Part shown: piece after piece, positions 2,518 to 51,753 of the stretch
How positions within the stretch are numbered: position 1 is the stretch's first letter
Layout of the letters: each line of letters opens with the position of its first letter
Assembly (NCBI GenBank): GCA_000091205.1
Contig: AP006486.2
Direction: 5' to 3' (one strand)
DNA length: 64,000 bases
Source: Cyanidioschyzon merolae
Lineage: Eukaryota
Notes under the pieces: generated by a model
Database searches by the model: none
What the model saw: the letters and a program-made list of their open reading frames with translations, nothing else
What the model was told of the DNA's origin: nothing
Made by a program: the position numbers and the translations under genes

Positions 2518-5500
2518 GCGACGGCAGGTTGGCTTGGCGTGCCCCGACGTGTCTCCTCGACAAGCATGCATGAAGGAGATGACGCACGACGTTCACGAAG
2601 GCATCGGTTTTTTTCTTGTTCCGAAGGGTTGCCCGTGCGGTGCTTGTGCCTGAACAGCTACTGCTACAGGAGCCGCGTTGATTTCATGGCATCTGAGCAT
2701 TGGTTCATAGCGTGCTGCAGATGAGCAGATCAGGTGGCATCCTCGGTGAACTCGACGAGACACGGCAAGGCGACTTGGAGACAGCGCCTCTGGATCTGGG
2801 TACTGCGCGCCCTCATGCTGCTTTGCGAGCAGTGTACGAAGACACTCGACTGTGATGTACTCATGAGTCGTAGCAGACCCGTATGCAGTGCTCGCTGTCC
2901 GGGTGGCTGCAACTTAGTTGGAGGCACAGCTCTCTGCCCGATACCGACGAAAAGCGCCCGTGCGACCTGGTTAGCACAGAGAGATCGGGGCACGGCTCTT
3001 GACGGGAAACCGGGCAACGAATCGAAAACCTTTGATGATTCCATAGCGGTTTGGTTTCACAGCGACATCGAACCGGGACGGGGCATGAGCGTTGCGCAAG
3101 GCGCCACGAACGCTGGTGTTACCCCCGGAGTGCTACGTAAAAGCCTCCCGACAGCTGCATTGGTTGATTCTCTGGAATGGCGAGCCAAGGCTCTCTATGA
3201 TCGTTTGTTAATTGCCCTGGGAAACCTTTCCCAGTGTATATATATGGATTGAAGAACTGTACCATGCCAGTGTCATGTTCGAGACGGGACTGCAATGCCC
3301 TGTGTCTTGGCCACTGATTACCGCATTGCAAGTCTGCAGCGTTTCAGCATAATGCCCGCACTGAGTACAACACCACTTCCGTCGACAGCGCACGCTGTAG
3401 AAATCGTATGGACGCTCCCGATGCACAGGATATTTCCGGATGTTGATCGAGGCGTCCCAATCTGGATGCAGGAACTGCTTACACGCGTATTTGCCGATAG
3501 ACTTATACTGTGGAACGTATCTCAACGTCGATAGCCTCGCTATTAGAGGTTCGATAAACTTGCCATACTCGATTTCACGCGTCCGGCGATGTTGCACGTT
3601 CGTCGTGTCTACGAGGTTAGCGTTGCACCCGTGCTCGTGTTCGGTTAAGATCGCCCTGAATCCATCAAAGCGAAACGTGCAGCATCGGTTCCCGGACTAT
3701 GGTATGCGCACGTCGAAGGAGCTGGAGCGCAGCCTTTACACGTTGCAGCACGTCCGCCACTGTACGCTACCATTACACCAAGGTATCGTATCAATCAAGT
3801 TGTATGCATCTCATTCAGAATTCGGTGAATGCACGCGCTTTGTCTCGGCATAACGGAAACCGTTAGCGAGCCCAGCGCACTCTCATGTAGGTATGCCAAT
3901 GAGCATTTGCGTACGCCACTGGGACCATCATGCATTCTTTCTACACGAAGCGTACAAAGCATCGCTCTTCGGGTGATGCGGTGCACTGAGGCTCGACCTG
4001 CGTTCTCATTCTGGTATTCCACTCGCTGAACTGCCTCTAGACGCCCATGATGTCCGACGCCATCGCATACCAAAGCCTGAAATATTCGAGCAGCCTCGTA
4101 TGCGTTCCGTACAGATCTTCGGTTCCATCGTCTTTTCTAGGAGGTACGGCGACGGACATGGCGACCTTCAGCCCGGGATGCACAGCCGACCCCGAGTCCT
4201 TCTCTTCATCAGCGTCAAATGCTTGAGAATGAGTCCCGTTGGTCAACTGAGGCAAACGATTCACACAGTGCATTCAGAATGATGCTGTGTCGGTCTGCAT
4301 CGTCCCAGTGAGTGCCGTACCAGTATGCCCCTGTAGACAATGAGACTTGAGCCAGCATCGCCAATGCTGTCTGCGAGCGAGTTCGTCTGCTTCATAGCGC
4401 TGCACGCGGACACTAGCAGTGCCTCATTGAGAAGGTCGTACTGCACGCTACACGAGAGAACGCCCAGATGCCCTGAGTTTTGACGTGACCTGTGCGGACC
4501 ACATCGACTAGAAACTGAAGTACACTCGCGTACGCCGAGGGACGCTATTTTGCGCTTGAGCGCTCTGTACAGGATAATCTGGTGGTGCACGATACAACGA
4601 GGGTGTGCATCGAGCTCAGACCATGATTCGGATGGTACGTCCGTCGGTCCGAAACCCACAGCCGCACGATGAGCTCGGATGATCCGAAGCGACACTCGCT
4701 CTCATGGCGACAGCGCTTCCTAACTCGCTTCCATCTCGAGCGCTCTTCGCCGCCACGAACTCGGCATTTGAATCCATCGAGACCTACCCAGAATACCGTC
4801 CATAAATCCCCACGTTTCCGGCTCAACGGGATGAGGCCTCAACGCCCACACGGTGCACGTCATGAAGCGCTCGCGACGGACCCGCATATGGTACTTGAGT
4901 TTGGTTTGATAGGTTTTCGCACCTACCCTGGAGACGTTGTCTTCGATGGCCGACGTGGCGCTGCCAGGCGAGATGATCTCCTGGAACGGGGGTGTGCGAA
5001 TCTCGGATCCCACGTAGAGGCCGTCATCCATCTTCTTTCCCGAGCACCAGATGCGTTTTCATGCGACGGTTGAATGTAGAGAATTCATGGGGGATGTGCA
5101 TCGCTAAGTGCACTGCGTCCGGAACGCCTGTCGAGGACTTGCTTGCCGGGTTGCATCAAGTTGAGCGAAGCAAGCAAGTCGTCCCTCGAGCGATAAGCTG
5201 CAGGGCATCCACGACGACGTGCAACTTACTATGTAGACGATCTTCACCCTTGATTTGTTTTGCTTCACGGCCTTTAGAGCGGTTATAGTCGGGCTCTGTC
5301 GCCGAGATGGTTTGTAATTCCTGTTCTTGCACGTCTTCTCTTGGGTAGGATCTTTCTTTTTCTTGTCCGACGCGGTATTTTGCGTCTCGATGACCCAGCG
5401 GGATAGCGTAGAGGTGGTCGCTATATGCGGTATCCGCCTCTTCATGCGGACTCAGGCGCACTGGATTGCTTTTGGCCCCGAAACCCGTATTTCCTATGTA

Positions 5501-7769
5501 TGCATCTACGATTCCCAAACAACTTTTTCTCACCCTTTTCCGAGGCGAGTTTACCGACGAACCGGAGCGGGCCTATCCGCTCACTCCTGCGTACGAGCAG
5601 AGACGCAACGCAGCATTTCCAGGCTAGTGAAGTTGAATTACGATTTGTCGTGGAAGGGTTCCACGATGCCGCACGACTCCCTTTCTAATCCACGAGTCTA
5701 AACGTGGCGTTTCACGTTGAGAAGACGCTTCCAACTGCATTAAACCAGGTAGCACGTGCACCCATGAAGAGCAGAACAACACCTACTGCGGCTACGTGTT
5801 CCTTTACCGCTTCACAGGTGCGGACAGCGACGTGGCCCCAGGGCAAGACTTGCGAATGTGGTACAGAGACGGGATCAGGAATGCCTCGACGGAGGATGCT
5901 GTTTTGAAAGATCATGCCCGTTAGACAAGTGGTAAGCAACCAAGCCAAAGCACCTCCGGTACGGCTTGTGATGTCGAAATGCTGGACTGTCTCTGCTTTA
6001 TAAACAGCGGTTTGCCCCTGTTGAAGCACCCATATGCAGGCGTGCCGAGTCGCCAGAATACATTCTCTCATCGAGCGGATCAAACACACCTCATTCCTGT
6101 CGTCATCGTCCGTCATTCAGATCGAACTCGATCCTGGGTTGCTCAGCGCTCGACGGCCTCTCATTCAAGTGCAAGTTTTCATTCGTCCAAAGGTGTCCGT
6201 TTATCGCCGGTCGTGTAAACTGCACGAACGTTTCACGTTTTCTGGCTGCTTCGGCAGCGTTTCTCAGATACAGTATGGAGCAAAATGAATGAAAGAAGAG
6301 AGGATGGTGCAGATAGCCTATGATTAGTTTTGCTAAGAGTGCACAACGTTCCGGATCAGGACAACGAGAACGTGGGTTTACGCACCTCCTGCACGAAGAA
6401 AGACTGACCTGTACCGGTGAACGCGCCATGCCAACATCGAGTCTTGCACCGACGCTGCTCCGCGATACAGGACGCATGTCCTACTTTGAATACGTTCGAG
6501 AAAGACAAACAGAACCAAAAAGGATGTGTTCGTACAGGTGTGTGAGAAATACCTGATCTGAGTATAAAGCTGCTCTCGTCGATCCTGAAAACGCCTAGTA
6601 CTGGCATAGCCAAACAGACCCAAGCGGCATCGAGACGCTGCTCGAACACTCATACCGGTACAGGCATCGCCGGGAAACCCGGTCACAGGTGGCAGAACGG
6701 AAAAATGCACTTGGACCCGGCTTCCGCAAAAGCAGGAGCAAAGCCATCCTGTCTTGCAAGATCGACCACGGTGATGCTGCAAATTCCAAAATTAATCTCA
6801 GCGTCGCGTAACTCGTTGGGTGCATCTAGTCAATATTCCATGAAGCAGATGTTCACTGAGGGTCCACGAACGCAGAGGCGTGCTCAGGCGGGCAAGGTTC
6901 TCTGCCCGTGTGCCTGGTGGCTATTGCGCTCCCGCAGTTTCTGATTAGACTCATCGATCTTACACTAGAACGAAAAAAGGAACGCGGGCACCAAGCGTGT
7001 ACCTCGAAGTGCCGTTCTACGGCGCCGTAGCGAACTGGCGTTGAATAATGGTGGTTCCGGTACATCGATCACGCTGCCGCTTGGCAAACAGTGAGTCTAG
7101 ACGGCAGTCAATCTCATGTGGCGTGTACAATCATGAGCTGATGATCACCAAATGATTTTCGGTTGCAAAATTCCAGCTCTTTGTTGGACACGCGCTGACT
7201 GTGAGTAAACACGGACGCTGTCTGTGGCTTTTGGGGCTCTCTCTCCTCTCTTCATAGAGAAGATCACTTGGCAAGATGACGCTGTACAAATGCAGTGCAT
7301 TCTGCGAGATGAAGCTGTTTCGAGCCGACTGCGATACCCAGTCGAGATCACTGTATACGGGGTGCTGAGCATAGGCCTTGATGTGGAGCTGTCGGCTGCC
7401 GCATCAATGCAGTTCCCCCGGGATGCAACCCGGTTCCAGCAACGGGCACCTGCAGTGCCGCTGCCGATCCGGTTTCGAACGAGCATCCGCAGACCCTGTT
7501 CTACGCCTCATTCAACGATCCGAGATAGCCACGGATGCAGCGCGCCCGTAGAGGCGTCTTCGACGATATTCCAGCGTTGGATATCGATTTCAGTCATCCC
7601 ATTCCTGATATCGCAATGCGACATACCCAGAAATGCAGCGGATTCAATGCAGCCTCGCCGGTGATTCCCCAGCTTTGGTTATCCATTCCCAGCGGGTGGA
7701 CTCGATGCAGTGCAGTTGGCAACAGGAGATCTCTGGTCGGTGACTTGGCGTCTGCGCCGACCCAGTGCG

Positions 7770-21165: not shown

Positions 21166-23009
21166 GCCGGAGGCCGAACTCCACTGACGCTGTTCGGAGC
21201 CTGTCAATGCTGGGCGAATACAGCGCTTCGGACACGGTTTGTTGCTAACGTCGATGCGCATAGGATGGGCGGGACCGGTCGAAGCCAGAGGCTCCCACGC
21301 TTGCCTTGGTGCGAATAGGAAGCGCTCATCCCCAGAGAGATATTTCGAGGAGAAGCAAGCACATTGGCTTTGTTGCTACTTGGTAGCAGCCTGAAATACC
21401 CGGGTCGCTTTCGGTTACCGTCTGTCCGTCTGTGGACTTCATTTTCGGATCTATTGTTGCTGTGATCACATCCGAATGATGCTCAACTGATAAAGTCACT
21501 CGGATGCCGCGAACCGCTCTCTGCGGTAAGGGTTGTATGATGCGCTAATCGAGTGAGCCAAGGAATCCATGCATGCAGCAGCAAGGTATGTCGCTTTTCA
21601 TGACGCATGACGCACTGGTTTTGCGTTATGCAAGCTGGTATTGCATGGCATTCGTGGAGATCCCAGGGATCATCGATATGACGTTGAGCGTCATGCACCG
21701 CACGGGTATGCATGGTGTAGATTGTCTCTGGTGGCTGGTGCCCGACATCATGCACCAGCCACGAGACGCTCCAGAGAGACTCCCCTGGTGGTGGAACGAT
21801 AGCGTCGCGTACGACGTAGCAGAGTCGGAACCTTCGCGTAGACTGCAGACAATCCGATATCCCTGTTATGTTGTGCACTTTACGCGAAATACTGCGCTCC
21901 ATGTATCCTGTTTGTCTTTCAGCTGTTCTCAAGCTGTGTTCATAAACACGGAATACCTTCATAGCAAGATACAGGGCTTGGATGTGTGCACGTCTGTAGA
22001 AGGCTCGCAATTCCGCCCAACTTTGCTGCATTCTTCAACCTCGCATTTTCGTCGAATCAAACGCAGCTTGCGAAAACCCGTGGCAGCAGACTTCGTGTCG
22101 CTCGCGTCCGGGTTACATGGTCAGCCCTTTCTATCACGAGGTTTGAAGACTTGAAAGCAAGTAGCGGAGACTGCTGGCGCAAGACATCAAACATGTTCGC
22201 GCGTATGAATGACTTGGCAAGCCCCGTGCCCAGCCTGACCTGGGCTCTTTCGTTCAGCTCAACGGTTTTCTAGCATAGGCAGCGACTTGAGCAAGCTACT
22301 GTTGTTTCGAGTGCACACTGCACGGCGAAGCGGTGTCAACGCCTATTACCATACAATCGCGCAACGTCACGGAGTGCGGGTTGATCGCTTTTGCTTTGCA
22401 CGAGTTGTACGTGAGCGGGCTTTTGGGCGAGCACCCTGGAACGCCTTCGCCCTGCACGTCTGTTGACTATCTATTCCTCGGTGTTGATGCTTGGACGACC
22501 ACACCAATGGAACAGAGACTTGACTCCAGTTATCCTATGCGTTCACCGCGCTATGCATTTGAGTCGCTTCAGGCGCGCGTTCTCAATTACAGACGACGGC
22601 ACCGTCGGAGTGATGCCGTTCCGCTCCCGGGGGAACACCCGAAAACGGAGGCTCTCGGCACGACGCTGTCGCCAAAGTCCGGCCACTGCCTCTCCAAGAC
22701 CCAGAACGCTGCGGTAAATACATCTACGACGAGAGCATATATTCTAGTACAGCATACTCACAACTGTCTCTGGAGGCACCATTTTGGGCAGTTCGCAGCC
22801 AACGTCTCCCTGCAACAGCAGCTGGGAGCAGCATCAAGCCACTGATAATGGCCTCGCGCCATTGGCCTCGAACGCCCAGGCGAATTCGCTTTGTAGGCGT
22901 GTGTGTGCTCAGGCGTATAGCACTTATCGATGAGATCATCTGTTGCGAAATTCGGTAGTTCAGTGAGATCCTTTGCAATCATAGACCAGTAGTTGCCTAC
23001 TGTGTTTTC

Positions 23010-24113
23010 ATGGAGTACCCCGAAGCGGACTCCCAGCCCCAACCAGAGCCACTCGACGTGGTGTTGCCTCGGGGGGCACCCCCGGACGTCGTTGGGCCGG
23101 TGGTCAACGGCCTCAGTTCCAGCGACTACTATTTTGCTTCCTATAGCCACTTTGGTATTCATGAAGAGATGATTAAAGACAAGACGCGGACGAAGACCTA
23201 CATGCGAGCGATCCTTGACAATAGGCACGTTTTTGATGGCAAGGTCGTCCTCGACGTCGGGGCAGGGACAGGTATTCTGTCGCTTTTCGCGGCTCGCGCA
23301 GGCGCAGCTAAAGTCTACGCTATCGAATGTGCCGACATTGCTCGACAAGCGCGCGAGATCGTAAAGGCGAACCATTTCGACCACGTAGTTGAGGTCATCA
23401 CCGGCCAGATCGAAGAGGTGCAGCTGCCGCGGGACCCACAAACGGGTGCAGAGCCTCTTGTCGATATTATCGTATCGGAATGGATGGGCTACTTTCTCTT
23501 CTACGAGAGCATGCTGCAAAGCGTTCTCTTCGCCAGAGATCGCTGGCTCAAACCTCGTGACGGGCATCTCTTTCCCGATGGCGCAACGCTCTACATCTGT
23601 GGGATCGAGGATGCTTCCTTTCGTAGTGAAAAATTCGATTTTTGGGAGAACGTCTACGGTTTCGATTTCTCGTGTGTTAAGCGGCTGGCGCTTACCGAGC
23701 CCCTCGTGGATTATGTGGACGTCGATCAGATCGTTACAGACACGTGCCCCGTGCTGCGGCTGGATCTGCATCGCCTCCAGCCGCAGGATCTCGACTGGAG
23801 TGCGCCGTTCCACATCACTGCAGAGCGAGATGACTTTGTTCATGCCTTTGTTGTGTTCTTCGACGTGCATTTCGGTGGGTGTCATCGACCGTTGACGCTG
23901 AGCACAGGGCCGTACGCTTCGCCAACGCACTGGAAGCAGACAGTGCTCTATTTGGATCGGGCGTTGCCGCTGCGAACGGGCGAGCGCATCGAGGGCACCC
24001 TTGCCTGTCGACGGAACGCACAGAATCCTCGCGATCTCGATATAGGTATCTCGTATCGCTTTCGGGGTTCGCAAATGAGCGCGAAGAAGATCCTCCGGTA
24101 TCAAATGCATTGA
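23010..24113 (+). CDS. PRMT1: Type I protein arginine N-methyltransferase (PRMT1-like)
   Basis: 'DYYFASYSHFGIHEEMIKDKTRTKTYMRAI', the motif I 'VLDVGAGTGILSLFAARAGA', the post-I 'YAIECA', the double-E loop region 'IIVSEWMGYFLFYESML' and the THW loop 'ASPTHWKQTVLYL' cover all PRMT1 signature motifs in order. The protein is 367 aa. Confidence 0.92.
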   Translation: MEYPEADSQPQPEPLDVVLPRGAPPDVVGPVVNGLSSSDYYFASYSHFGIHEEMIKDKTRTKTYMRAILDNRHVFDGKVVLDVGAGTGILSLFAARAGAAKVYAIECADIARQAREIVKANHFDHVVEVITGQIEEVQLPRDPQTGAEPLVDIIVSEWMGYFLFYESMLQSVLFARDRWLKPRDGHLFPDGATLYICGIEDASFRSEKFDFWENVYGFDFSCVKRLALTEPLVDYVDVDQIVTDTCPVLRLDLHRLQPQDLDWSAPFHITAERDDFVHAFVVFFDVHFGGCHRPLTLSTGPYASPTHWKQTVLYLDRALPLRTGERIEGTLACRRNAQNPRDLDIGISYRFRGSQMSAKKILRYQMH

Positions 24114-25384
24114 CAAGGCGACAGCGGCGCAGTAGGCGTGTGCGCACACAGGTTGCCATGCGAACCCCCGGGGGCGAACTGCATCACTGTCGCGAGAATT
24201 GACCGCAAATTGCGATTCCGTTTCGCGGGTCATTGAGCCGGGAAAGGGAGCCTCGATATCCCCGATGATCAGCTGTGGTTAGGTATGGATCGCACGTGGT
24301 GCTACGTCACGGATGACGCGTCTGGTCTTTCGTAGCGCAAAAGGGCACAGCATCCTCGTTCGGGTGAATGCCGCGTTGGTATTGCTGTATTCCAGCCCGT
24401 GGAAGTTGCGGATTGCGTTCGTTCGTGGATGGAGGCGGTGTACTCGTTCGCGATGCTCATGGTCGATGTTCGTCGGTGAGAGAGAGAGTTGAGATCAGCG
24501 TTTCACCAGCGTCTTGCATGGCGTGCAGCAACGCCACATGCCCCGAGCGTTTGCTCGAAGAAGAAGAATAGCCGTTCTTTGCGTATATACGCACTGGGTA
24601 AACGAGCGAGCAGATGCATGATTTCTGGTCCAGTGGTAATCACTTGAACCCGCTCGCGCCCGGCAGCGGAGTCGAGGCTCGTAAGCGCCACTGCGCCCTG
24701 CTCTCGTTTGCGTGCCTCATTTCATGCGAGTCCAGGTGCGGCTTTTTGGTGCCTGTGAATGCGGCGACCTCGGTGATAGACACTGGTGTATGCTGGGCGT
24801 TCCTTGACGCAATCTGTGTCAGCGGAGCGTCGTAGAAGGTATCGAGCATAGAACCTGCCTCCGAAAGTTAAAACTCATTTGATTTTTCATCCCGAATTCG
24901 TGATGAGAATCATATGAGCGCGTGACACAGCGTATGGAGTCACCAAGTGCGTCTAACCGGGGGAACGGTGACGCAAGTCAAATATCCGAGTCCAAGTTGA
25001 GCCGTATGCCTTCCGAAACCTTTTTCGGTTTGATTTCAGACCCAGGCAAGAGCGAACGATCACGCGCCAAAGAATGAAAGCGCACCAGCGTGGTTCTGTG
25101 GGCTCTTTGACGGGAATAGATGCCTCCAAAGTCGCCACTGCCGTCGCTGAAGCATAGCGTCGCGTTATAGACTGGGCACGGGACTGCGTAACGTCCAGGT
25201 TTTAGGGCTCGTAGCAGGTATTTCCAAGCCTGGCCGGATCGAACATTCCTAAGTAAACCGCACCATATCAAGAAAAAGAGATCGTCCTGATGACAAGCGG
25301 CATATCCAGCTTTGATCGAGCTCAGCTCCACATGTCGAATCATGGAATGCCATGATTGCTCTTCATTATCCACAGAGCATCGTT

Positions 25385-27252
25385 CCCAGTGCGAACAGGC
25401 TGCGCTCCATGCATCTGGACTGCTGAACCCGAACATACCGATACTTCGAACCAGGCGCCACGCGAATGCCCATTGCATTGACCACTGATGTTTCATAGCG
25501 GATGTCTACAGCAATTCAGTACAATGCCAATGAAGCGTACGAAACAAGTCCCTGGAGAGCTCGCTCGACGCCGTGCGATCAGGCGCTGTGGAGACATTCC
25601 ATATTTCTGGATGCTGATCGAGGCACTACTACCTCGATGCAGCAAGTGCTTGCGCACTCGGTTGCTCGTGGAATCACACCACAGAAGCCGTCCGACTTTC
25701 CATTGCCTGGCCAGCTGGGGTTTCGGCACCTTCCCGTCCAGCATCTCGTGCGACTAGCTCTGATGAAGGCACATCTTCTGTGACTGGTACACCGGGTACC
25801 GATATTCCCCGTGCGTCAATGGCTTTCTGTACGCATCGGAGGCAATCGTACGGAATCTATTCCGTCACACACACACACACACCTCAATGGAACGCTCTGA
25901 CCTACAGGCAGGAGTGCTGCCTCTGCACCGCACAACACATCCAGTGCTGTACGCTACGGCACAATGACACGAACGCTCGGTCACTTGCTTTCGCTACTCA
26001 TGGACGCAGCTGGTGAACGCTCACTCCTTGCCTCCGTCCAACAGAAAAGAGACCGTTGCCGAGCCCGACGCAGTCGTATGTCCCCCGGCTCGAAAAATCG
26101 TCTGCATGAGGAATGAACGCTTCTGCACAGTCCCTGAATGGAGCGTACGAAGCATCCGCCGCTGCTCGATACGGTGCTCAGGGCGTCGAGACGGGCCCAG
26201 ACACAGTCATGCTGCTGGCTCGTTTGCATGCTGGCGAGCATTCGGAACCCCGGCGCAGGTGAAAAGCATCATGTGCTTGCACGACTCTCCCGAGGAAAGT
26301 GCACCTAAACACTGCGTCGGTCGCCGCTGTCCCTGGAGAGCTCTCCCCGTGTACCCCTATTCATCGAGATACGAGGAGCAAGGCCCGCCAATGCATTTCG
26401 TAAAGCAGCTCGAATGCTGCACACGTGCTCCCAGAGACTAGCAGTAGACCTCTCGCAGCGCAGTGCATCCAGTAGCCAAGTATCTGTGGGCACGGAATGG
26501 GCCCTGCAGCGACGCCCCGGGAGCGCCGCCAACAGCTGCCGTTGGGGGCTAGCGCACTCGAACTCCGGGCATCCATCTGCGCTGGGCTGGGGAGCGCGCT
26601 TCAGGAAAGCGTCGTCGCGTGAGCTACGGGCAAGGAACGCAAGCATCCCATTCCAACCGTGTTACGGGCATGACGTTCGTGGATCCGAGGCCGCGAGCCG
26701 CACCAAGCGCTTCATCGATCCGAAGCGACACTCGCTCCGATCCCGACGTTTCTTCTGAGGGTTTTCTCTACGAGCTCGGGCTCTTCCGCCGCCAGCAGCG
26801 AGTCACTCGCTTTCATCGACATTGCGAGAATCGCCTGCACCAGCTCCGACTTTCCTGGTCCGTTATGCTCGGGATGATCATGCCCACAGGTTGTGCTTCT
26901 TAGAGGACTGGTCATTGGTGAGCGTATGCTTTTGCGGTGTTTTTCTGAGGATCATTGGACGCTTCTCGGCACATCCGTCGTAGACGTTTTCTTCGATCGC
27001 CGATGTGGTGCTGCGACGCCAGGGGGCACTCTGAGCAGCGAAAATGCAAATCCCTGATCCCACGATCAGTGCGTATTGCATCTCCTGCCCGTGCATCAAC
27101 TGTGTTACCAGGTGAATGTTTGACAGAAAAATCCAGCAGAAGAAGAGGGACAGCTGGCAACCCTGCGTTGGGATCCCCACGAAGCAGCTGCCTGACGAAG
27201 CATGTCAAGGCGAGTGCATCTAAGCGAGCCGTCCTCGGGTAAGAGGCTATCC
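25385..27252 (+). repeat. Dispersed direct repeat, copy A (~1.87 kb), near-identical to 47713..49663
   Basis: The six-frame ORF products inside it are identical or near-identical to those in copy B; for example 25488..25757 equals 47814..48083 and 26013..26441 roughly equals 48339..48767. Both boundaries are readable by eye, from 'ccagtgcgaacaggctgcgctccatg' to '...cgtcctcgggtaaga.gctatccaa'. It contains a (CA)7 microsatellite and one unit of the 42-bp VNTR. No recognisable protein domain is encoded. Confidence 0.85.
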
Positions 27253-29420
27253 AAACCCTGATGTTGTCCCGTGCCTCTCAACTTTGCTGGTATCAACGGC
27301 TCTGTCATGTATCCAGTAGCCTAAAAGTGACCTCTGACATCGGATAACACTCATCGGACTAGACTGACCCATGGAGCATTGGCTGGCACGAACTGCAGCT
27401 GAACGCCAATCGCAGTTATGTGTTCGTTGACGGCCTTTGAGTCATGGAAAGTGATACGGTCTTTGGGCACATCAGAATCATGTGAGAAGTAGAAGCCATA
27501 AAATGTATCGACGAAGGATGAGGTGTTGCAAGGTCCTCCCGTTTCACGATGCGTTTGCGGCGACGAGATCAATCGCCTCTGAACCTGATGTTGTCGGCAT
27601 GCTCGTCTGGCGCTTCCCCGCAAACGGCGATTCACCCGCGCTTGGGTACCCGTCTGCAGCTCTACCACATTTCCGAATAAAATCTTACGGAGTGAGACGC
27701 GCACTCGTTCCACATGCTGTAATCGCTTGTGTTGCATTTTGTAATGAACAGGGCGTGTTGCTGAACACGTGATTGTCTCCAATAGAGGTGCGCCCCGTAA
27801 AACGAGGAATGTTTCACAACCAGAGTCTATGTATGTACACTTAGTCAAAGGGCGCTTCCGAGCCATTCTCCATCGGCCTGTGTGCTATCGGATTAAGTTT
27901 CATTCGACGCACACATCGAGCGTCAGAGCTTGCCCCACAAAGTTAGATCGCCTCAGTTCTCCGGGGCTCGTATGCTGCACCATACATCGACTCACGAACA
28001 ACATGCGTGCGTTGTCGCTGGTGGAATTCATCATTACAGGGAGTCGTCGAGCTCGCGCCCTATGAGCCACTACAGTCTCGTCATCGCCCCGTCGGGTGAA
28101 CAGCTGTTCCGGCCTATCTATTTTCTTCTTCTTCGTCACTTGTTCTTCTGCGCTCGATGTTTGGCAATGAGGGATTTTTCCGTTCGTTTTCGACAGGCGG
28201 CGATGGCGGCGCTCCGGGATCCCCGAATTCCCTGTGCATAACTTTCCCTTGGAATTTTTATTTCTTCAAAATGAACCGAAATCTATATTTCCGTAGCTGC
28301 GGACCTTCTTGGAGTTTCAAGGACTCGCAGGTGAATGACGAAAAATGCACCAGTGCGCCACCGAGCTGAAGACTTCAGCGCTTCGCCGGATTGAACAATC
28401 ATTACTTTTCCCGATAGAAAGCACGCCCTCTATGGGGTTGAATCACGGTGCGTGTGTGTGTGTGGAGGAATAAACAGACGCTCTAGCCCCGACAGCATCA
28501 GCGAAAGCTCGAACACAAGCGGAATCGCACCATACCACATTGTCAAATGCACGGACGTTGTCAGATGTCGGGTGAAAAGTCTTCTATGATTCGACAAAGT
28601 CATTGGTGCTGTTGTGTGAGCCTTTCCTGCGAGCAAGACCGCGGCAACCTCATTGATGCACTGCTGCACAAAAGAACACGATAATGTCCTGGTTCTCTTC
28701 GAGTTCGATCGCACATACAGCGGACTCCTTCACCTCGAAAACATATAAACGCTCGGAAGATTTTGTTTGAAGGAAGCCTCATCGACTGAAAAAACATACT
28801 GACGTGCCTCTGCTTCATAGCGAAGGCGACTTTCCACGAACGCTCTAGTTTCGATTTCGATGCAAGATGGCCGTGAGTAAACTACGAATTACTTATTGCG
28901 ACTATATTCCGGGGTTTCCGGGACCACACGAACACGCTGTGGAGAAGCAGAGACGCCCGTTGCGACTGCGAACTTCGCTTTCGCTTTCCGTAAGGCGATC
29001 AACGGGTAGTTTTTCTATCATTGGCAGCAAGTAATCCGTGAGCATATCGGTTTTCTGCACGCAACGCATATTCTTGTTTCTTTCAGTTTTCCCCAAACAT
29101 CAGAATCCTGTGGTATGACTGATCTACAGGAGGAATGTAGCGCACCTTGCTCTGCTCCGTAAAGAATCTACCCTACGGGCAATTCGTCGACGATCTAAAC
29201 ACCACACTGCATCGTGATGTCAATCTCTTGCTCTACACTCCGAAAAAGCACTCGGTTACACCTAGTGGGATTGCAGCAACAGCGAGTTGATAGACATTAA
29301 AAGTGTCTCGTGAGAAGCTAGGATCTTGTGCCCGTTCACGAGTAATGCCCGCACATCTGGCGACTTTCCAACAGTCGGCGAAACGCTTTCCCACATCAGC
29401 ATGCACCAGCGCTGCGTCTC

Positions 29421-30446
29421 ATGGACGATCCGCAGAAGCGGGCAAATGGAATGGACTGGGGCGTTGCTCGCTGGCGGAGCGAGGGCTCGCGGAGGGACTC
29501 GCTTGGCCCCAGTTCTCTAAACCTGATGAAATCCCTGGTGCTTGAAACTACTTTTGTACAGCCTGCACAAGCTCATCCCTTCACCGTTAGGAAGCAAAGA
29601 CCAAGCGCTTGTTGTCCGTGGTACGGCGCCAGCAGCGCAACGCGGCTACTGCGCAGAAACCTGCACCGACGCCCAGGAGCTTTCGTGCTACACCTCAGCG
29701 CGAAAAAGGTTCGTGAGCTGGTACGCATCCGGTTGTATCCTTCAGACTTGAGTTTTCGCTGGAACGCGTGTCGCTTCTGTTTCTGGTTAAAGTGCAGGTA
29801 TGGGGTGGCGATGCGGCCTCCGTTTCCTGAGGTCTTCAACCATATCGATGCGGCTATGAAAGAAGCATTTCATGGGAGAAACCTTCGCTCGGTCGCAAGT
29901 ATCCCAGATGATTGGCCAGACGGAACCATCGACTGCTCCTCCGCGATCGAAAACGTGCGCTCACAAGAGTTCGAGGTGACGACGCACGCGTGGGTACGCT
30001 TCACGATCACAGGTCGACTTGATGGGCTCATCCGCTTCCAAGATGAGACGCTGGGTGTCCTGGACTTTAAGGTTTCTCGGGCGGAGACATCCAAACTGCA
30101 GGAAACGTATGCGATGCAGTTACATGCGTATGCTTTTGCACTGGAGAAAGCCGCGAACCTCCTCGATGCCGATGACACGAGCATAGCACCGGTGCCTCTG
30201 CCTCCAGCGGTGCCTCGGCTTGCGCTCATCGTTTTCCGACCCGATGGATATGAGCTCTTACCGTCGAGTCACGAGAGCTGTCTCCGAGGCCAGACGGAGT
30301 TCATTCCCATTGAGCGGGATGATGAAGGCTTCTACGCACTCTGCCAAGAGATCGCTGCATTGTTTGAGCGCCCCGAGCCGCCGGCCCCGAGCAAGCATTG
30401 CGAAACCTGTAGCTTTTACGCTGCTCGCTATCCATTTCAGTCCTAG
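29421..30446 (+). CDS. PD-(D/E)XK nuclease-superfamily protein, Cas4/RecB/EXO5-like, with cysteine clusters
   Basis: The nuclease motifs occur in order: 'ITGRLDGLI' (motif II Asp), 'LGVLDFKVS' ((D/E)xK) and 'YAMQLHAYAFAL' (QxxxY, typical of RecB-family nucleases). The catalytic core is flanked by Cys clusters 'CRFCFWLKC' (N-terminal) and 'CETC' (C-terminal), reminiscent of the Fe–S cluster of Cas4/AddB/EXO5. The call rests on motifs only. Confidence 0.5.
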   Translation: MDDPQKRANGMDWGVARWRSEGSRRDSLGPSSLNLMKSLVLETTFVQPAQAHPFTVRKQRPSACCPWYGASSATRLLRRNLHRRPGAFVLHLSAKKVRELVRIRLYPSDLSFRWNACRFCFWLKCRYGVAMRPPFPEVFNHIDAAMKEAFHGRNLRSVASIPDDWPDGTIDCSSAIENVRSQEFEVTTHAWVRFTITGRLDGLIRFQDETLGVLDFKVSRAETSKLQETYAMQLHAYAFALEKAANLLDADDTSIAPVPLPPAVPRLALIVFRPDGYELLPSSHESCLRGQTEFIPIERDDEGFYALCQEIAALFERPEPPAPSKHCETCSFYAARYPFQS

Positions 30447-47137: not shown

Positions 47138-47712
47138 TCAAGCTATCGTTTATCGTGATTGCGTTGTTAGCTGAGAGGTATCTTCAAATTTGAAGAATGT
47201 TGATTGATGATTCAGTGCTGAAAGGTTTGTAGAGCGCCTCCGAATGGCGCTATCTGTTCCAGCTAATCGATACTTTTTCGGGTCCGTGACGGTCAACGAG
47301 TCGATTTCGGGGAGAGGTCAGGATGTTTGGTATGCCCAGGCGAGCGTGTCCTCTGTCCATAGAGAGTGTGTTGGTGTTGTCTCAGATAAGCAGGATGCTC
47401 TTCATCGATACCATCGCAACTATGCAGGGGAATAGCAGTAGCAATCCAGCTACGATCCAGGCACCCAGCGTGCTCAATGGCAACACAACGACTTGCTGCT
47501 AGTGATTGCCAGTCCCGCGAATCCGTAATGACTGCAGGCCTGCTGCGGCTTGGGAATCGATATGGCGTAAGGAAAACGCATAGCATGATGATCGGTTTCA
47601 TGGTCCGAGAGAAAAGCATACACGGTAGCTTGTGCGCTTGTCGAGGTATACTCAGTAGTTCCAATGTGTGGAACATCATGAACGTGTACCTATTGCACTG
47701 TACATACATCTC

Positions 47713-49663
47713 CAGTGCGAACAGGCTGCGCTCCATGTATCTGGACTGCTGAACCCGAACATACCGATACTTCGAACCAGGCGCCACGCGAATGCCCATT
47801 GCATTGACCACTGATGTTTCATAGCGGATGTCTACAGCAATTCAGTACAATGCCAATGAAGCGTACGAAACAAGTCCCTGGAGAGCTCGCTCGACGCCGT
47901 GCGATCAGGCGCTGTGGAGACATTCCATATTTCTGGATGCTGATCGAGGCACTACTACCTCGATGCAGCAAGTGCTTGCGCACTCGGTTGCTCGTGGAAT
48001 CACACCACAGAAGCCGTCCGACTTTCCATTGCCTGGCCAGCTGGGGTTTCGGCACCTTCCCGTCCAGCATCTCGTGCGACTAGCTCTGATGAAGGCACAT
48101 CTTCTGTGACTGGTACACCGGGTACCGATATTCCCCGTGCGTCAATGGCTTTCTGTACGCATCGGAGGCAATCGTACGGAATCTATTCCGTCACACACAC
48201 ACACACACCTCAATGGAACGCTCTGACCTACAGGCAGGAGTGCTGCCTCTGCACCGCACAACACATCCAGTGCTGTACGCTACGGCACAATGACACGAAC
48301 GCTCGGTCACTTGCTTTCGCTACTCATGGACGCAGCTGGTGAACGCTCACTCCTTGCCTCCGTCCAACAGAAAAGAGACCGTTGCCGAGCCCGGCGCAGT
48401 CGTATGTCCTCCGGCTCGAAAAATCGTCTGCATGAGGAATGAACGCTTCTGCACAGTCCCTGAATGGAGCGTACGAAGCATCCGCCGCTGCTCGATACGG
48501 TGCTCAGGGCGTCGAGACGGGCCCAGACACAGTCATGCTGCTGGCTCGTTTGCATGCTGGCGAGCATTCCGAACCCCGGCGCAGGTGAAAAGCATCATGT
48601 GCTTGCACGACTCTCCCGAGGAAAGTGCACCTAAACACTGCGTCGGTCGCCGCTGTCCCTGGAGAGCTCTCCCCGTGTACCCCTATTCATCGAGATACGA
48701 GGAGCGAGGCCCGCCAATGCATTTCGTAAAGCAGCTCGAATGCTGCACACGTGCTCCCAGAGACTAGCAGTAGACCTCTCGCAGCGCAGTGCATCCAGTA
48801 GCCAAGTATCTGTGGGCACGGAATGGGCCCTGCAGCGACGCCCCGGGAGCGCCGCCAACAGCTGCCGTTGGGGGCTAGCGCACTCGCACTCCGGGCATCC
48901 ATCTGCGCTGGGCTGGGGAGCGCACTCGCACTCCGGGCATCCATCTGCGCTGGGCTGGGGAGCGCACTCGAACTCCGGGCATCCATCTGCGCTGGGCTGG
49001 GGAGCGCGCTTCAGGAAAGCGTCGTCGCGTGAGCTACGGGCAAGGAACGCAAGCATCCCATTCCAACCGTGTTACGGGCATGACGTTCGTGGATCCGAGG
49101 CCGCGAGCCGCACCAAGCGCTTCATCGATCCGAAGCGACACTCGCTCCGATCCCGACGTTTCTTCTGAGGGTTTTCTCTACGAGCTCGGGCTCTTCCGCC
49201 GCCAGCAGCGAGTCACTCGCTTTCATCGACATTGCGAGAATCGCCTGCACCAGCTCCGACTTTCCTGGTCCGTTATGCTCGGGATGATCATGCCCACAGG
49301 TTGTGCTTCTTAGAGGACTGGTCATTGGTGAGCGTATGCTTTTGCGGTGTTTTTCTGAGGATCATTGGACGCTTCTCGGCACATCCGTCGTAGACGTTTT
49401 CTTCGATCGCCGATGTGGTGCTGCGACGCCAGGGGGCACTCTGAGCAGCGAAAATGCAAATCCCTGATCCCACGATCAGTGCGTATTGCATCTCCTGCCC
49501 GTGCATCAACTGTGTTACCAGGTGAATGTTTGACAGAAAAATCCAGCAGAAGAAGAGGGACAGCTGGCAACCCTGCGTTGGGATCCCCACGAAGCAGCTG
49601 CCTGACGAAGCATGTCAAGGCGAGTGCATCTAGGCGAGCCGTCCTCGGGTAAGAAGCTATCCA
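47713..49663 (+). repeat. Dispersed direct repeat, copy B (~1.95 kb), near-identical to 25385..27252 but with the internal 42-bp VNTR expanded to 3 units
   Basis: See copy A. Only a few point differences are visible, for example 26059 'gacgcag' versus 48405 'ggcgcag'. It is longer than copy A because of the VNTR. Confidence 0.85.
48879..49004. repeat. 42-bp in-frame tandem repeat (VNTR), 3 units here versus 1 unit at ~26537..26578 in copy A
   Basis: 'cgcactcgcactccgggcatccatctgcgctgggctggggag' occurs three times with one variant unit ('cgaact'). It accounts for the 141-aa versus 113-aa minus-strand ORFs and the extra 'HSHSGHPSALGWGA' and 'APQPSADGCPECEC' units. Confidence 0.9.
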
Positions 49664-51753
49664 AGCCCCACGGCCTCCTGTATCTCGGCTTTTTCGAAAA
49701 TTCTTCCCGTGGATCTGTTTCAGGTGGAGTGCCTTGAGAAGGGTTTCAGAAATATCTTTCCTCTTCGGTATTTCTCATACGTCTCTCTTCCTAGGAATTG
49801 TCTTTCCCTTCTTCGTTCAGTTGCTTGGTCCTTTTATTCATCTGCGGCTTGTCGTTGACATCGCGGTGTAGCGAGAATGTGATCCCTCTAATCTGTATCG
49901 ATTTTGTTCATGGGGATTCATAGCCACTGATTTCACTGTTCCGCTGAAACTCACCTGTATTCTAGACGTATATACCTGCTTTTCGGAAACTGCATCTTCG
50001 TCACGTCCTCCGTTGTGATGACGTCTATGAGCAGAGGCGCGGCATGGCGCTCCTTATCCCACGCCTGCAGAGACGCAAAGAGCCATTCAGTGCTGGAAAA
50101 CTTTGTAGAGAACGGCATGTTGAATAACTGTGTCAAAGAGGCGAACGTATCATCTATTGACCCGTGAGTGTTAGCTTGGCATATGATAACAGAGCGGACA
50201 GCTTGGACTCGACTGAGCCAGGGAACATCGAGGCGTAAGAAGAGCAGCGTACCTGGAGTCACAGCTGCGTAATCCTTGACAGCTTTCAAGTGATGGAACG
50301 CAACATATTCGAACAGCGGCACAAAAAATGTGGGAAGCAGGAGGCATGAAGCTTGCCCCGATGAAAGGCAAAGTACTGAATGATCATGACCGCATGGCAA
50401 CTCGTCGGCGACTATACGATAGAATCGCCGCTAGGTCTGACATTGTCCTCATTCTCGGATGACTCCTGTTTGCAACCAGCGGTCGATGCTTTTTTTTTCG
50501 TTCGCAAGCCGGCCACTGCTTCTCTCAAACAGCGTCCCATCGAGTTTGACGAATACCGTTCGATCCGGTGATGAGCACTCGCGCTTTCGTTCGAGATCGA
50601 TAGACGGTTACTGAACGCACGACTGCCTCCCGCAGAAGCGTACTTGTTTCTTTGTCCACCCGGGTCGCTTCATCATAATTCGCATTAAAGATGCCGAAGC
50701 TTCACGGTACGGCGCTATTTCGGTAGTATTCTTTCGCTAAGGTTAGAGATTGACTTGGATGGACAAGGAAAAATTCATGTACATGGAGTTTGCTTTGCTC
50801 TGTCTTGGTTGTACGAGGTCAAGCATCAACACTAGGAGAAGCGGGCGTCATCCACCTGCGGATGGTAGAATAACTTTCTTCCAGCATTAAGAGCGTTTCC
50901 CTCCCAAGCAAGCAATAGTAGCGTACGTTCTTGTCGTGGCATTTCTCGAATCACCAGAATACATTGCTTTTGTTGAATACGTGAGAGAAAATCAACCGAG
51001 AACGTAGAGAGTGTGCAGGTGCATGTGTTCGAGCATCCCCCGTTCTGAGTATAACGCAGCTGACGCTGGGCATATACGTACATGCTTGAGCACCCGCAGC
51101 TGCCACCTCTGCTTGCTGATTCGTCTCACATCTCTAAAGTGACCTTGGTACGCGTCGACAAGCGTATCGCATCACCAAAGCGAAGTGATCTCGATTCGTC
51201 GATGCGTCTTAGACCCCTTACGTGACCTGGGCACTAGCACATACGCACATCGCATCTCTATATCGCTCTTGCTCAATTCCGAAGCAGTGCTGCTAGGTTA
51301 CAGGGTCCATCGTCCCGCTGATGAACTGACTATGGGCATCGAAATCAACAAAAGTGCAGCTCGTTGCAGTATGCAGCTTCCCGAGCCAATCGCCCTACAT
51401 ACCATGGCAAAGCAAGCGCTCACTTTACTGGTCAGGGAACCCTCGTTGCATATGAGGGAGAAAGGTCGCAAGAAACCCATATTGCAAGGCTGTGTCTGCA
51501 ATCCTCAAGCGGAACGCTTCATGACATAACAACACATATCGCATGCGGAATGAACGTGCACCGACCTCCTGACCTTGAATACAATACGACATTCAGAAGC
51601 AAGAGTACACCAACGAAACGGTACCAACTGAAGATGCTTGGATAAAGCTGGTATCGACCTTGATCATCCGCGACGGCATGCAGCGCTTCACGATAAGGCA
51701 GCAGCACGCGCCGCAGTGCCTTCCTCGTCACTGGGCATCCAGCAGGACTCGGG

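Follow-up and report, generated by a model that had tools for sequence, protein, structure and literature searches.

Does the open reading frame (ORF) at positions 29421 to 30446 of Cyanidioschyzon merolae contig AP006486.2, as numbered in the 64,000-nucleotide stretch analysed here (the window), encode a genuine enzyme of this red alga, and if so, of which family, with which chemistry and for which compartment? A previous reading of the letters alone (the sequence-only reading) had pointed to the motifs GRLDGL, VLDFKV and QLHAY as signs of a RecB-family nuclease fold, and had proposed either an EXO5-like organellar enzyme or a more divergent, uncharacterised member. Direct translation confirmed the three motifs in that order, and profile matches together with a structural model place the predicted protein, as a stand-alone and single-domain enzyme, in the RecB/Cas4 branch of the PD-(D/E)XK superfamily. 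By their defining features it is not a member of the Cas4, EXO5, ACE1 or helicase-nuclease families, but belongs to a new, uncharacterised subfamily within PDDEXK_1.

The ORF is complete according to the open reading frame list (341 amino acids plus stop), and direct translation revealed an in-frame stop upstream of it at 29343-29345. The protein matched the Pfam family PDDEXK_1 (PF12705) over residues 180-332 with 39.8 bits (E=6.6e-10), well above the gathering cutoff of 22, and the homologues P0002, P0003 and P0004 also exceeded this cutoff (30.9-41 bits). No helicase or ATPase module accompanied this single Pfam domain. The scores for Cas_Cas4 (PF01930; 15.0 bits, cutoff 22.7) and for the TIGR00372 cas4 model (28.1 bits, cutoff 65) remained below threshold, Exo5 (PF09810) gave no match at E≤10, and NCBIfam held no model specific to the family. 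A true EXO5 is thus not what the ORF encodes, and of the two proposals only that of a divergent, uncharacterised member was borne out; databases already label homologues automatically as 'PD-(D/E)XK endonuclease-like domain-containing protein'. Membership in a defence system was also considered and dropped, as PADLOC returned only weak partial Cas4 or Aga_Cas4-like matches for the nuclease and none for its neighbours.

From a 31-sequence alignment, AlphaFold2 predicted residues 1-92 to be disordered (predicted local distance difference test, pLDDT, below 50), followed by a nuclease domain in which the mean pLDDT of 10-residue blocks was mostly 87-97, with dips to 67-81 at residues 131-140, 171-180, 241-260 and 331-341. 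The modelled domain has a restriction-endonuclease-like alpha/beta core similar to that of solved RecB-like nucleases. Foldseek searches with the model retrieved AdnA (9np6_A; 1.2e-5) and the Cas4 protein SSO0001 (1.5e-5; template modelling score 0.54 normalised on SSO0001), while the best solved relative by sequence profile was ACE1 (9IAB; E=4e-4), the aligned part comprising the D-DxK core, the C-terminal Cys motif and the stretch between them. A phmmer search of the single sequence against the PDB gave only a spurious match to STING (E=1.1).

Conservation was counted over 134 aligned family members, or over the stated number of non-gap sequences. The predicted catalytic residues were close to invariant: D201 was kept in all 134 sequences, G198, D215 and K217 in 133 each, Y237 in 131 and Q233 in 130. 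The candidate first-helix residues were more variable, with D143 conserved in 112 of the 134 and position 147 occupied by Lys or Arg in 114. Three predicted strands (189-198, 202-206 and 211-218) followed by a helix (223-242) give the ordered D...DxK and QxxxY layout in the model, and a mean-field coupling analysis (324 sequences, effective number of sequences ~230, 21,115 pairs) ranked the pair K217-Y237 19th. Together with the PDDEXK_1 score and the Foldseek matches, these near-invariant motifs go far beyond chance and uphold the RecB-family fold deduced earlier from D, D-x-K and QxxxY.

The protein is very probably an active RecB-like DNA nuclease, judging from its motifs and its characterised relatives. 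In such an enzyme, the acidic residues D201 and D215 would bind Mg2+ or Mn2+, K217 would activate or position the nucleophile for phosphodiester hydrolysis, and Q233 and Y237 would grip the DNA by its backbone or end, the role they have in relatives from the RecB, AddB, Cas4 and lambda-exonuclease groups. This mechanism is based on homology, since the bacterial gene neighbourhoods described below were uninformative. By analogy to Cas4, AddB, EXO5 and ACE1, the substrate may be single-stranded DNA (ssDNA) or DNA ends; characterised solo-Cas4 enzymes differ in exo- versus endonuclease mode (PMC12501428). Action on RNA, such as 5'-end processing or decapping in the manner of DXO/Rai1 or of cap-snatching PD-(D/E)XK enzymes, is highly improbable, as both the QxxxY motif and a Cys staple mark the RecB/Cas4 branch.

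One unusual feature of the family is the arrangement of its cysteines. In EXO5 and DNA2, one N-terminal and three C-terminal Cys residues (1+3) hold an iron staple. The same arrangement holds the iron-sulfur (Fe-S) 'iron staple' of Cas4-family, AddB and ACE1 nucleases (PMC12094033), and is found in the nuclease domains of AddAB and AdnAB (PMC12094033, PMC5704561). The family studied here departs from this canonical pattern: Cys was found at position 117 in 124 of 126 non-gap sequences, at 120 in 125 of 128, at 327 in 131 of 134 and at 330 in 127 of 132, whereas no third C-terminal Cys belongs to the conserved set. The family-wide ligand set is thus C117, C120, C327 and C330, a 2+2 arrangement of the form CxxC...CxxC. 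The sequence-only reading had noted Cys clusters flanking the catalytic motifs, with a CxxCx4C at the N-terminal side; the two CxxC pairs proved to be conserved (at least 96%), but C125, mostly Val in other members, falls outside the conserved set. Compared with the 1+3 pattern, the C-terminal side lacks its third Cys and the N-terminal side has gained a second one next to the first, which suggests a rearranged staple. In the profile consensus, the C-terminal CxxC aligned with the first two Cys residues of the ACE1 motif CRYCAFNSIC (9IAB), and C327 and C330 occupy those columns in the window protein. Literature searches for a 2+2 Cys variant returned nothing.

The four conserved Cys residues come from N- and C-terminal elements of the domain, and their placement in the model corresponds to the iron-staple topology. 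In one neighbour-joining clade (P0230, P0261 and P0200) the cysteines were lost together, two members lacking all four and P0200 three, with the D, the DxK and the Tyr kept in all and the Gln in two of the three. The four Cys-Cys pairs C117-C327, C117-C330, C120-C330 and C120-C327 were the top N-terminal by C-terminal couplings (together taking ranks 56, 64, 212 and 240 of the 21,115), and the pairs R118-E310 and W114-E310 (ranks 25 and 38) connected the N-terminal helix to helix 301-316. It is probable that the four residues form a single metal site, because of their joint loss in one clade, their mutual couplings and the topology of the model. This site would hold one metal centre, an Fe-S cluster or possibly Zn, stapling N-terminal helices to the C-terminal one and closing a channel for ssDNA or DNA ends. 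The members of the Cys-poor bacterial clade, which show SGQM, EADM and -CDY at the four positions, represent a natural 'staple-free' variant.

Which metal the site holds is a separate matter, and we moderately favour Fe-S over Zn. Structural Zn(Cys)4 sites are classically marked by two CxxC motifs, and the pattern departs from the 1+3 Fe-S arrangement common to Cas4, AddB, AdnB, EXO5, DNA2 and ACE1, so that a Zn-stapled Cas4-like nuclease is a possible, if less probable, alternative, independent of where the protein is localised. However, the C-terminal CxxC lines up with the two leading Fe-S ligands in the C-terminal Cys motif of ACE1, and exchanging the third C-terminal ligand for a second N-terminal one would still leave four ligands bridging the same two elements.

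When compared to known nucleases, the window protein combines features of several families. As in solo-Cas4 proteins (Methanosarcina mazei Solo-Cas4, PMC12501428; S. solfataricus SSO0001, PDB 4IC1), a single RecB-like PD-(D/E)XK domain of ~200-240 amino acids is encoded outside a CRISPR locus and four conserved Cys residues would link N- and C-terminal elements. Unlike Cas4, the protein stays below the PF01930 and TIGR00372 cutoffs, has 2+2 rather than 1+3 cysteines, carries an N-terminal extension and is encoded in a eukaryotic nucleus with no CRISPR-cas adaptation genes as neighbours. The best profile match, the Argonaute-associated Cas4-family nuclease ACE1, is likewise a small stand-alone enzyme, acting on ssDNA, with a Cys4 metal staple to which the present one may be analogous; ACE1 has, however, 1+3 cysteines that bind [4Fe-4S], and its gene accompanies that of a long-A pAgo (PMC12094033), whereas no Argonaute or other recurrent partner was found beside the bacterial relatives of the present family in 85 loci. 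EXO5 (PF09810; PDB 7LW7) and MGME1 (PDB 5ZYU) are also eukaryotic single-domain PD-(D/E)XK nucleases, with roles in mitochondrial and/or nuclear DNA maintenance, and EXO5 has an Fe-S staple; a presequence-like N-terminus is proposed for the window protein. Against these likenesses stand the lack of a PF09810 match, a different Cys arrangement (MGME1 has no cluster at all) and relatives that are bacterial, red algae being the only eukaryotes found. From AddB, AdnA/AdnB, RecB and DNA2 the protein differs in the absence of a helicase or ATPase and in its size, 341 residues of which ~240 form the nuclease domain.

With P0004, the most distant hit of the first round, as query, 550 proteins were retrieved at E≤0.001. 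Most of the top 120 were ~235-240 amino acids long; the few matches named by their source were called 'PD-(D/E)XK nuclease family protein' and came from metagenome-assembled genomes (MAGs) of Actinomycetota and Chloroflexota. A profile search run exhaustively over 1.84 billion cluster representatives gave 1998 clusters at E≤1e-3, including 366 at E≤1e-30, and 440 stretches from GTDB species genomes encoded a relative. In the best 80 of these 440, from which the GTDB taxonomy was read, Chloroflexota (Anaerolineae, Dehalococcoidia, Chloroflexia) and Acidobacteriota dominated, next to Actinomycetota, Zixibacteria, Planctomycetota, Pelagibacteraceae and one archaeon. Members with a long extension turned out to come from red algae, namely Porphyridium purpureum, Compsopogon caeruleus, Purpureofilum apyrenoidigerum, Galdieria partita, G. 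phlegrea and Cyanidium caldarium. Further eukaryotic contigs and transcripts carry a homologue, in one case among zf-MYND, WD40 and SNAPC3 genes. No eukaryote other than red algae was found among the 150 best representatives of the profile search, and a third word-indexed protein search, using a red-algal alignment as query, added no further eukaryotes. The family consists of stand-alone proteins of ~237 amino acids that are sparsely distributed in bacteria, with uncultured Chloroflexota, Acidobacteriota and Actinomycetota among the carriers, and present in at least seven red-algal genera. Only the rewired 2+2 Cys set and this confinement to red algae among eukaryotes are unusual.

At first the gene appeared foreign to its host. 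The first word-indexed search gave only four relatives, the next nearest one being bacterial (37% identity), and bacterial sequences were as similar to the window protein as those of non-cyanidiophyte red algae, as could be expected if it were bacterial contamination, had been transferred horizontally only very recently, or were a decaying pseudogene without a role in its host. This explanation is now largely refuted and we regard it as extremely improbable. The gene lies between eukaryotic genes; those in its vicinity encode MCM2, an arginine methyltransferase of the PRMT type, a protein of the alpha-amylase family, a NUDIX protein and an aldose epimerase, among others. In Cyanidiococcus yangmingshanensis, the nearest named species (68% amino-acid identity), the locus reads PRMT - nuclease - alpha-amylase(-) - SMR - prefoldin - aldose epimerase and matches that of the window, and a third lineage (L093) has the same gene order. 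Four independent hot-spring metagenome contigs showed ~99% DNA identity, encoded a 99%-identical protein and had the neighbours in the same order. Homologues occur in four red-algal classes, and a Cys-containing insertion specific to red algae is common to both red-algal groups. The ORF is intact with every catalytic residue kept, and strain comparison found only 4 variable sites in its 1026 nucleotides, versus ~1.3% across the surrounding 13 kb. Moreover, no occurrence of the word 'nuclease' in the main text of a paper on horizontal gene transfer in Cyanidiales (PMC6629376) refers to this gene. Because of the synteny with Cyanidiococcus and the third lineage and the ~99%-identical metagenome contigs, we conclude that the gene is genuine and nuclear, and that it has been maintained by vertical descent in a Cyanidioschyzon-like red alga. 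A transfer specific to Cyanidiales, suggested by the four hits of the first search, was dropped after homologues had been found in Porphyridium, Compsopogon, Purpureofilum, Galdieria and Cyanidium.

For the compartment in which the enzyme acts, the N-terminal extension is the main source of evidence. Bacterial homologues start ~10 residues before the conserved 'L-x-PSDL' strand and lack the extension, whereas 10 of 10 eukaryotic homologues have an extra 58-170 N-terminal residues that could not be aligned with one another. The red-algal extensions carry a net charge of +5 to +18, the nuclease domain being net acidic. In the window protein, residues 1-103 contain 19 Lys and Arg versus 7 Asp and Glu, which, together with the disorder predicted for residues 1-92, substantiated the basic N-terminal region of ~90 residues noted in the sequence-only reading. 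Short hydrophobic, aromatic-containing starts were seen in Cyanidiococcus (MALSLWVVGP), L093 (MALLVWTPG), Cyanidium (MGDAVGFVGP) and Porphyridium (MRAWCLLFAP), and Purpureofilum has a similar one at an internal Met (MAFLSAV). Compared with rhodophyte transit peptides, such starts are reminiscent of plastid targeting. Because all red-algal copies are extended and bacterial copies are not, the basic, disordered and non-conserved extension may be an import presequence, and we lean towards an organellar location, plastid or mitochondrion. The targeting sequence suspected earlier is strengthened by the comparison of eukaryotic and bacterial homologues, but is not proven, and the protein may in fact start at M36. 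Three of the four strain differences in the ORF fall in codons 11-14, two being non-synonymous and one of these removing M11 in other strains, and a start at M36 would leave an extension of ~68 residues, comparable to those of Cyanidiococcus (74 residues) and the L093 ORF (~80).

The same enzyme could instead be nuclear or cytosolic, repairing nuclear DNA or degrading foreign DNA, with the basic tail serving as a regulatory, nuclear localisation signal-like or DNA-binding element. A Lys- and Arg-rich extension would suit nuclear localisation signals as well, the annotated N-terminus starts with acidic residues, some bacterial relatives adjoin type I restriction-modification or integrase-like genes, and Cas4-family proteins such as ACE1 act on invading DNA (PMC12094033). 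We nevertheless consider this fairly unlikely: in 10 of 10 eukaryotic homologues the extension is long, unconserved, low in acidic residues and often aromatic near its start, in keeping with the usual appearance of a rhodophyte import presequence, and it is predicted to be disordered and to contain no domain.

The explanation that best joins these observations, and that seems on balance probable to us, is that of a metal-stapled RecB/Cas4-type nuclease imported into the plastid or mitochondrion to act on organelle DNA. After import, the mature enzyme would trim DNA ends, flaps or ssDNA in recombination-dependent processes that repair or replicate the genome of the plastid or mitochondrion, in a role analogous to that of EXO5, MGME1 or DNA2 elsewhere in eukaryotes; our confidence in a specific pathway, drawn by analogy, is low. 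Several findings pull in the other direction. The annotated start (MDDPQKR...) is acidic, unlike a typical transit peptide, an objection that falls away if translation truly begins at M36. The coupling signal between the cysteines stems from essentially one evolutionary loss event, and the paired CxxC motifs have the zinc-like appearance discussed above. When ORFs within 4 kb were clustered in 85 bacterial loci, no recurrent neighbour was found and no family occurred in more than six loci. Literature searches found no paper on the subfamily. The nearest bacterial clusters were from Limnocylindrales (Chloroflexota), Acidobacteriota and Armatimonadota, and as these are non-cyanobacterial, an origin from the plastid endosymbiont, which would favour a plastid function, is unsupported. 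Finally, red-algal monophyly was recovered in 0 of 200 bootstraps.

This last result was obtained by neighbour-joining (200 bootstraps), which grouped Cyanidioschyzon with Cyanidiococcus at 100%, these two with Cyanidium at 80% and the remaining red algae together at 38%. Other red-algal proteins were nevertheless among the best BLAST matches of the Cyanidium protein. Because of this ranking and the C172-containing insertion common to both red-algal groups, a single ancient acquisition followed by fast evolution in the Cyanidioschyzon branch is the most economical reading, though not proven by the sequence comparisons. The gene descends from the sparsely distributed bacterial family and was probably already present in the red-algal ancestor. 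A cyanobacterial (endosymbiont) origin was dropped, as no cyanobacteria were found among the best 80 of the 440 GTDB species hits and the nearest named relatives were those listed above. The full sequence of events, in which red algae inherited a Cas4-like nuclease from an ancient and not evidently cyanobacterial donor, rewired its staple from 1+3 to CxxC...CxxC and put it to use in organelle DNA-end or flap processing, is a tentative proposal that we judge less than probable as a whole.

If this proposal is true, a Cas4-like nuclease fills in red algae the niche held in other eukaryotes by EXO5, MGME1 or DNA2, and would be both a red-alga-specific organelle genome-maintenance factor and the representative of a new structural class of metal-stapled RecB-like nucleases. 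Confirmation would make the protein a candidate DNA-maintenance nuclease of organelles that is open to experiment in red algae, as C. merolae permits gene targeting, and would provide a natural experiment on the RecB/Cas4 'iron staple', in which the same two elements are bridged by four differently distributed Cys residues and one bacterial clade does without the staple cysteines altogether. Otherwise, the family can be recognised correctly but is uncharacterised, one subfamily within a nuclease superfamily that is very large and well known.

Table 1. Positions of the nuclease ORF and of its domains, motifs and individual residues in the window.
Feature	Position	Strand	Remarks
Nuclease ORF	29421..30446	+	stand-alone Cas4-like PD-(D/E)XK nuclease (predicted); 341 aa plus stop
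N-terminal extension, aa 1-100, putative organelle presequence	29421..29720	+	basic, disordered, non-conserved
Possible alternative start codon M36 (MKSLVLETTFVQP...)	29526..29528	+	strain differences and sister extension lengths
Conserved nuclease domain, aa 101-341	29721..30443	+	full-length homology to ~237-aa bacterial proteins; model pLDDT
N-terminal CxxC (C117, C120), proposed metal ligands	29769..29780	+	junction of helices 107-116 and 118-127
CRFCFWLKC (CxxCx4C), aa 117-125	29769-29795	+	direct translation
C125, third Cys of CxxCx4C; lineage-specific	29793..29795	+	family mostly Val (65), Ala or Ile
D143...K147, candidate first-helix (motif I) residues	29847..29861	+	helix 137-150; putative role
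C172, in short red-algal-specific insertion	29934..29936	+	Cys in 13/15 red-algal sequences; gap in 116/119 bacterial representatives
GRLDGL, aa 198-203; G198 and predicted catalytic D201 (motif II)	30012..30029	+	end of strand 189-198
VLDFKV, aa 213-218; predicted catalytic D215-x-K217 (motif III)	30057..30074	+	strand 211-218
QLHAY, aa 233-237; Q233-xxx-Y237, RecB-family hallmark	30117..30131	+	helix 223-242
C-terminal CxxC (CETC; C327, C330), proposed metal ligands	30399..30410	+	aa 327-330; start of helix 328-336

Guilt by association was dropped as a route to function in bacteria, since the neighbours in the 85 loci were common only to closely related genomes; recurrent helicase, Argonaute or CRISPR-cas adaptation genes were not found among them. 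In an Actinomycetota subclade only (L005 5552-7829; L007/L008/L043; L009 4546-9154), the nuclease gene is part of a conserved operon, overlapping by 4 bp an ORF for a conserved protein of ~150 residues and unknown function (~45% identity between genomes). In L007/L008/L043 and L009 it is followed by two paralogous tyrosine-recombinase-like ORFs; the downstream ORF of L005 is unrelated to these and had no Pfam match. One locus of the subclade adjoins type I restriction-modification genes and another an integrase, and the operon may be a mobile element or island. A few fusions were also observed (P0293, P0296, P0207 and P0205): two proteins with leucine-rich repeats (340 and 544 amino acids), one of 413 amino acids from an Armatimonadota MAG with an extra N-terminal domain of ~180 residues, and a Galdieria phlegrea gene model of 1001 amino acids that may be a fusion or a mis-prediction. 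The phage family phrog_31195 matched the CxxC-containing N-terminal half of the nuclease (Porphyridium protein, E=5.8e-9, profile positions 2-166) and fits it better than generic exonuclease families do, and phage relatives of the family may thus exist.

In the third lineage, the database protein P0003 (208 amino acids, JGI 'Cas4 (RecB family)'; L093 7656-8627) results from a gene call that was cut short. In full, the ORF begins with MALLVWTPGLL... and has the N-terminal motif CRLCFWLKC, and the loop that follows its QxxxY helix contains an inserted run of Asp residues (DDDDDDDDN).

Elsewhere in the window, Rfam and transfer RNA scans found no RNA genes. The intergenic gap between the PRMT and nuclease genes (24114-29420) measures 5.3 kb, versus ~1.2-1.9 kb in Cyanidiococcus (L092) and L093, and the extra DNA includes one copy of a ~1.9 kb repeat and the stretch 27500-28500, in which strain differences are 2-3 times more frequent than in its surroundings. 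The dispersed repeat is present in two direct copies with 95% identity (25386-27258 and 47712-49668), and weaker echoes of it appear in translated comparison near 3378-6100, ~45.5 kb and ~55.6 kb. The repeat has no long ORF and may be the decayed remnant of a mobile element. An ORF of 491 amino acids on the minus strand (22758-24233) lies antisense to the PRMT gene (23010-24113, plus strand), overlapping all of it, and is most likely a spurious shadow ORF in GC-rich sequence.

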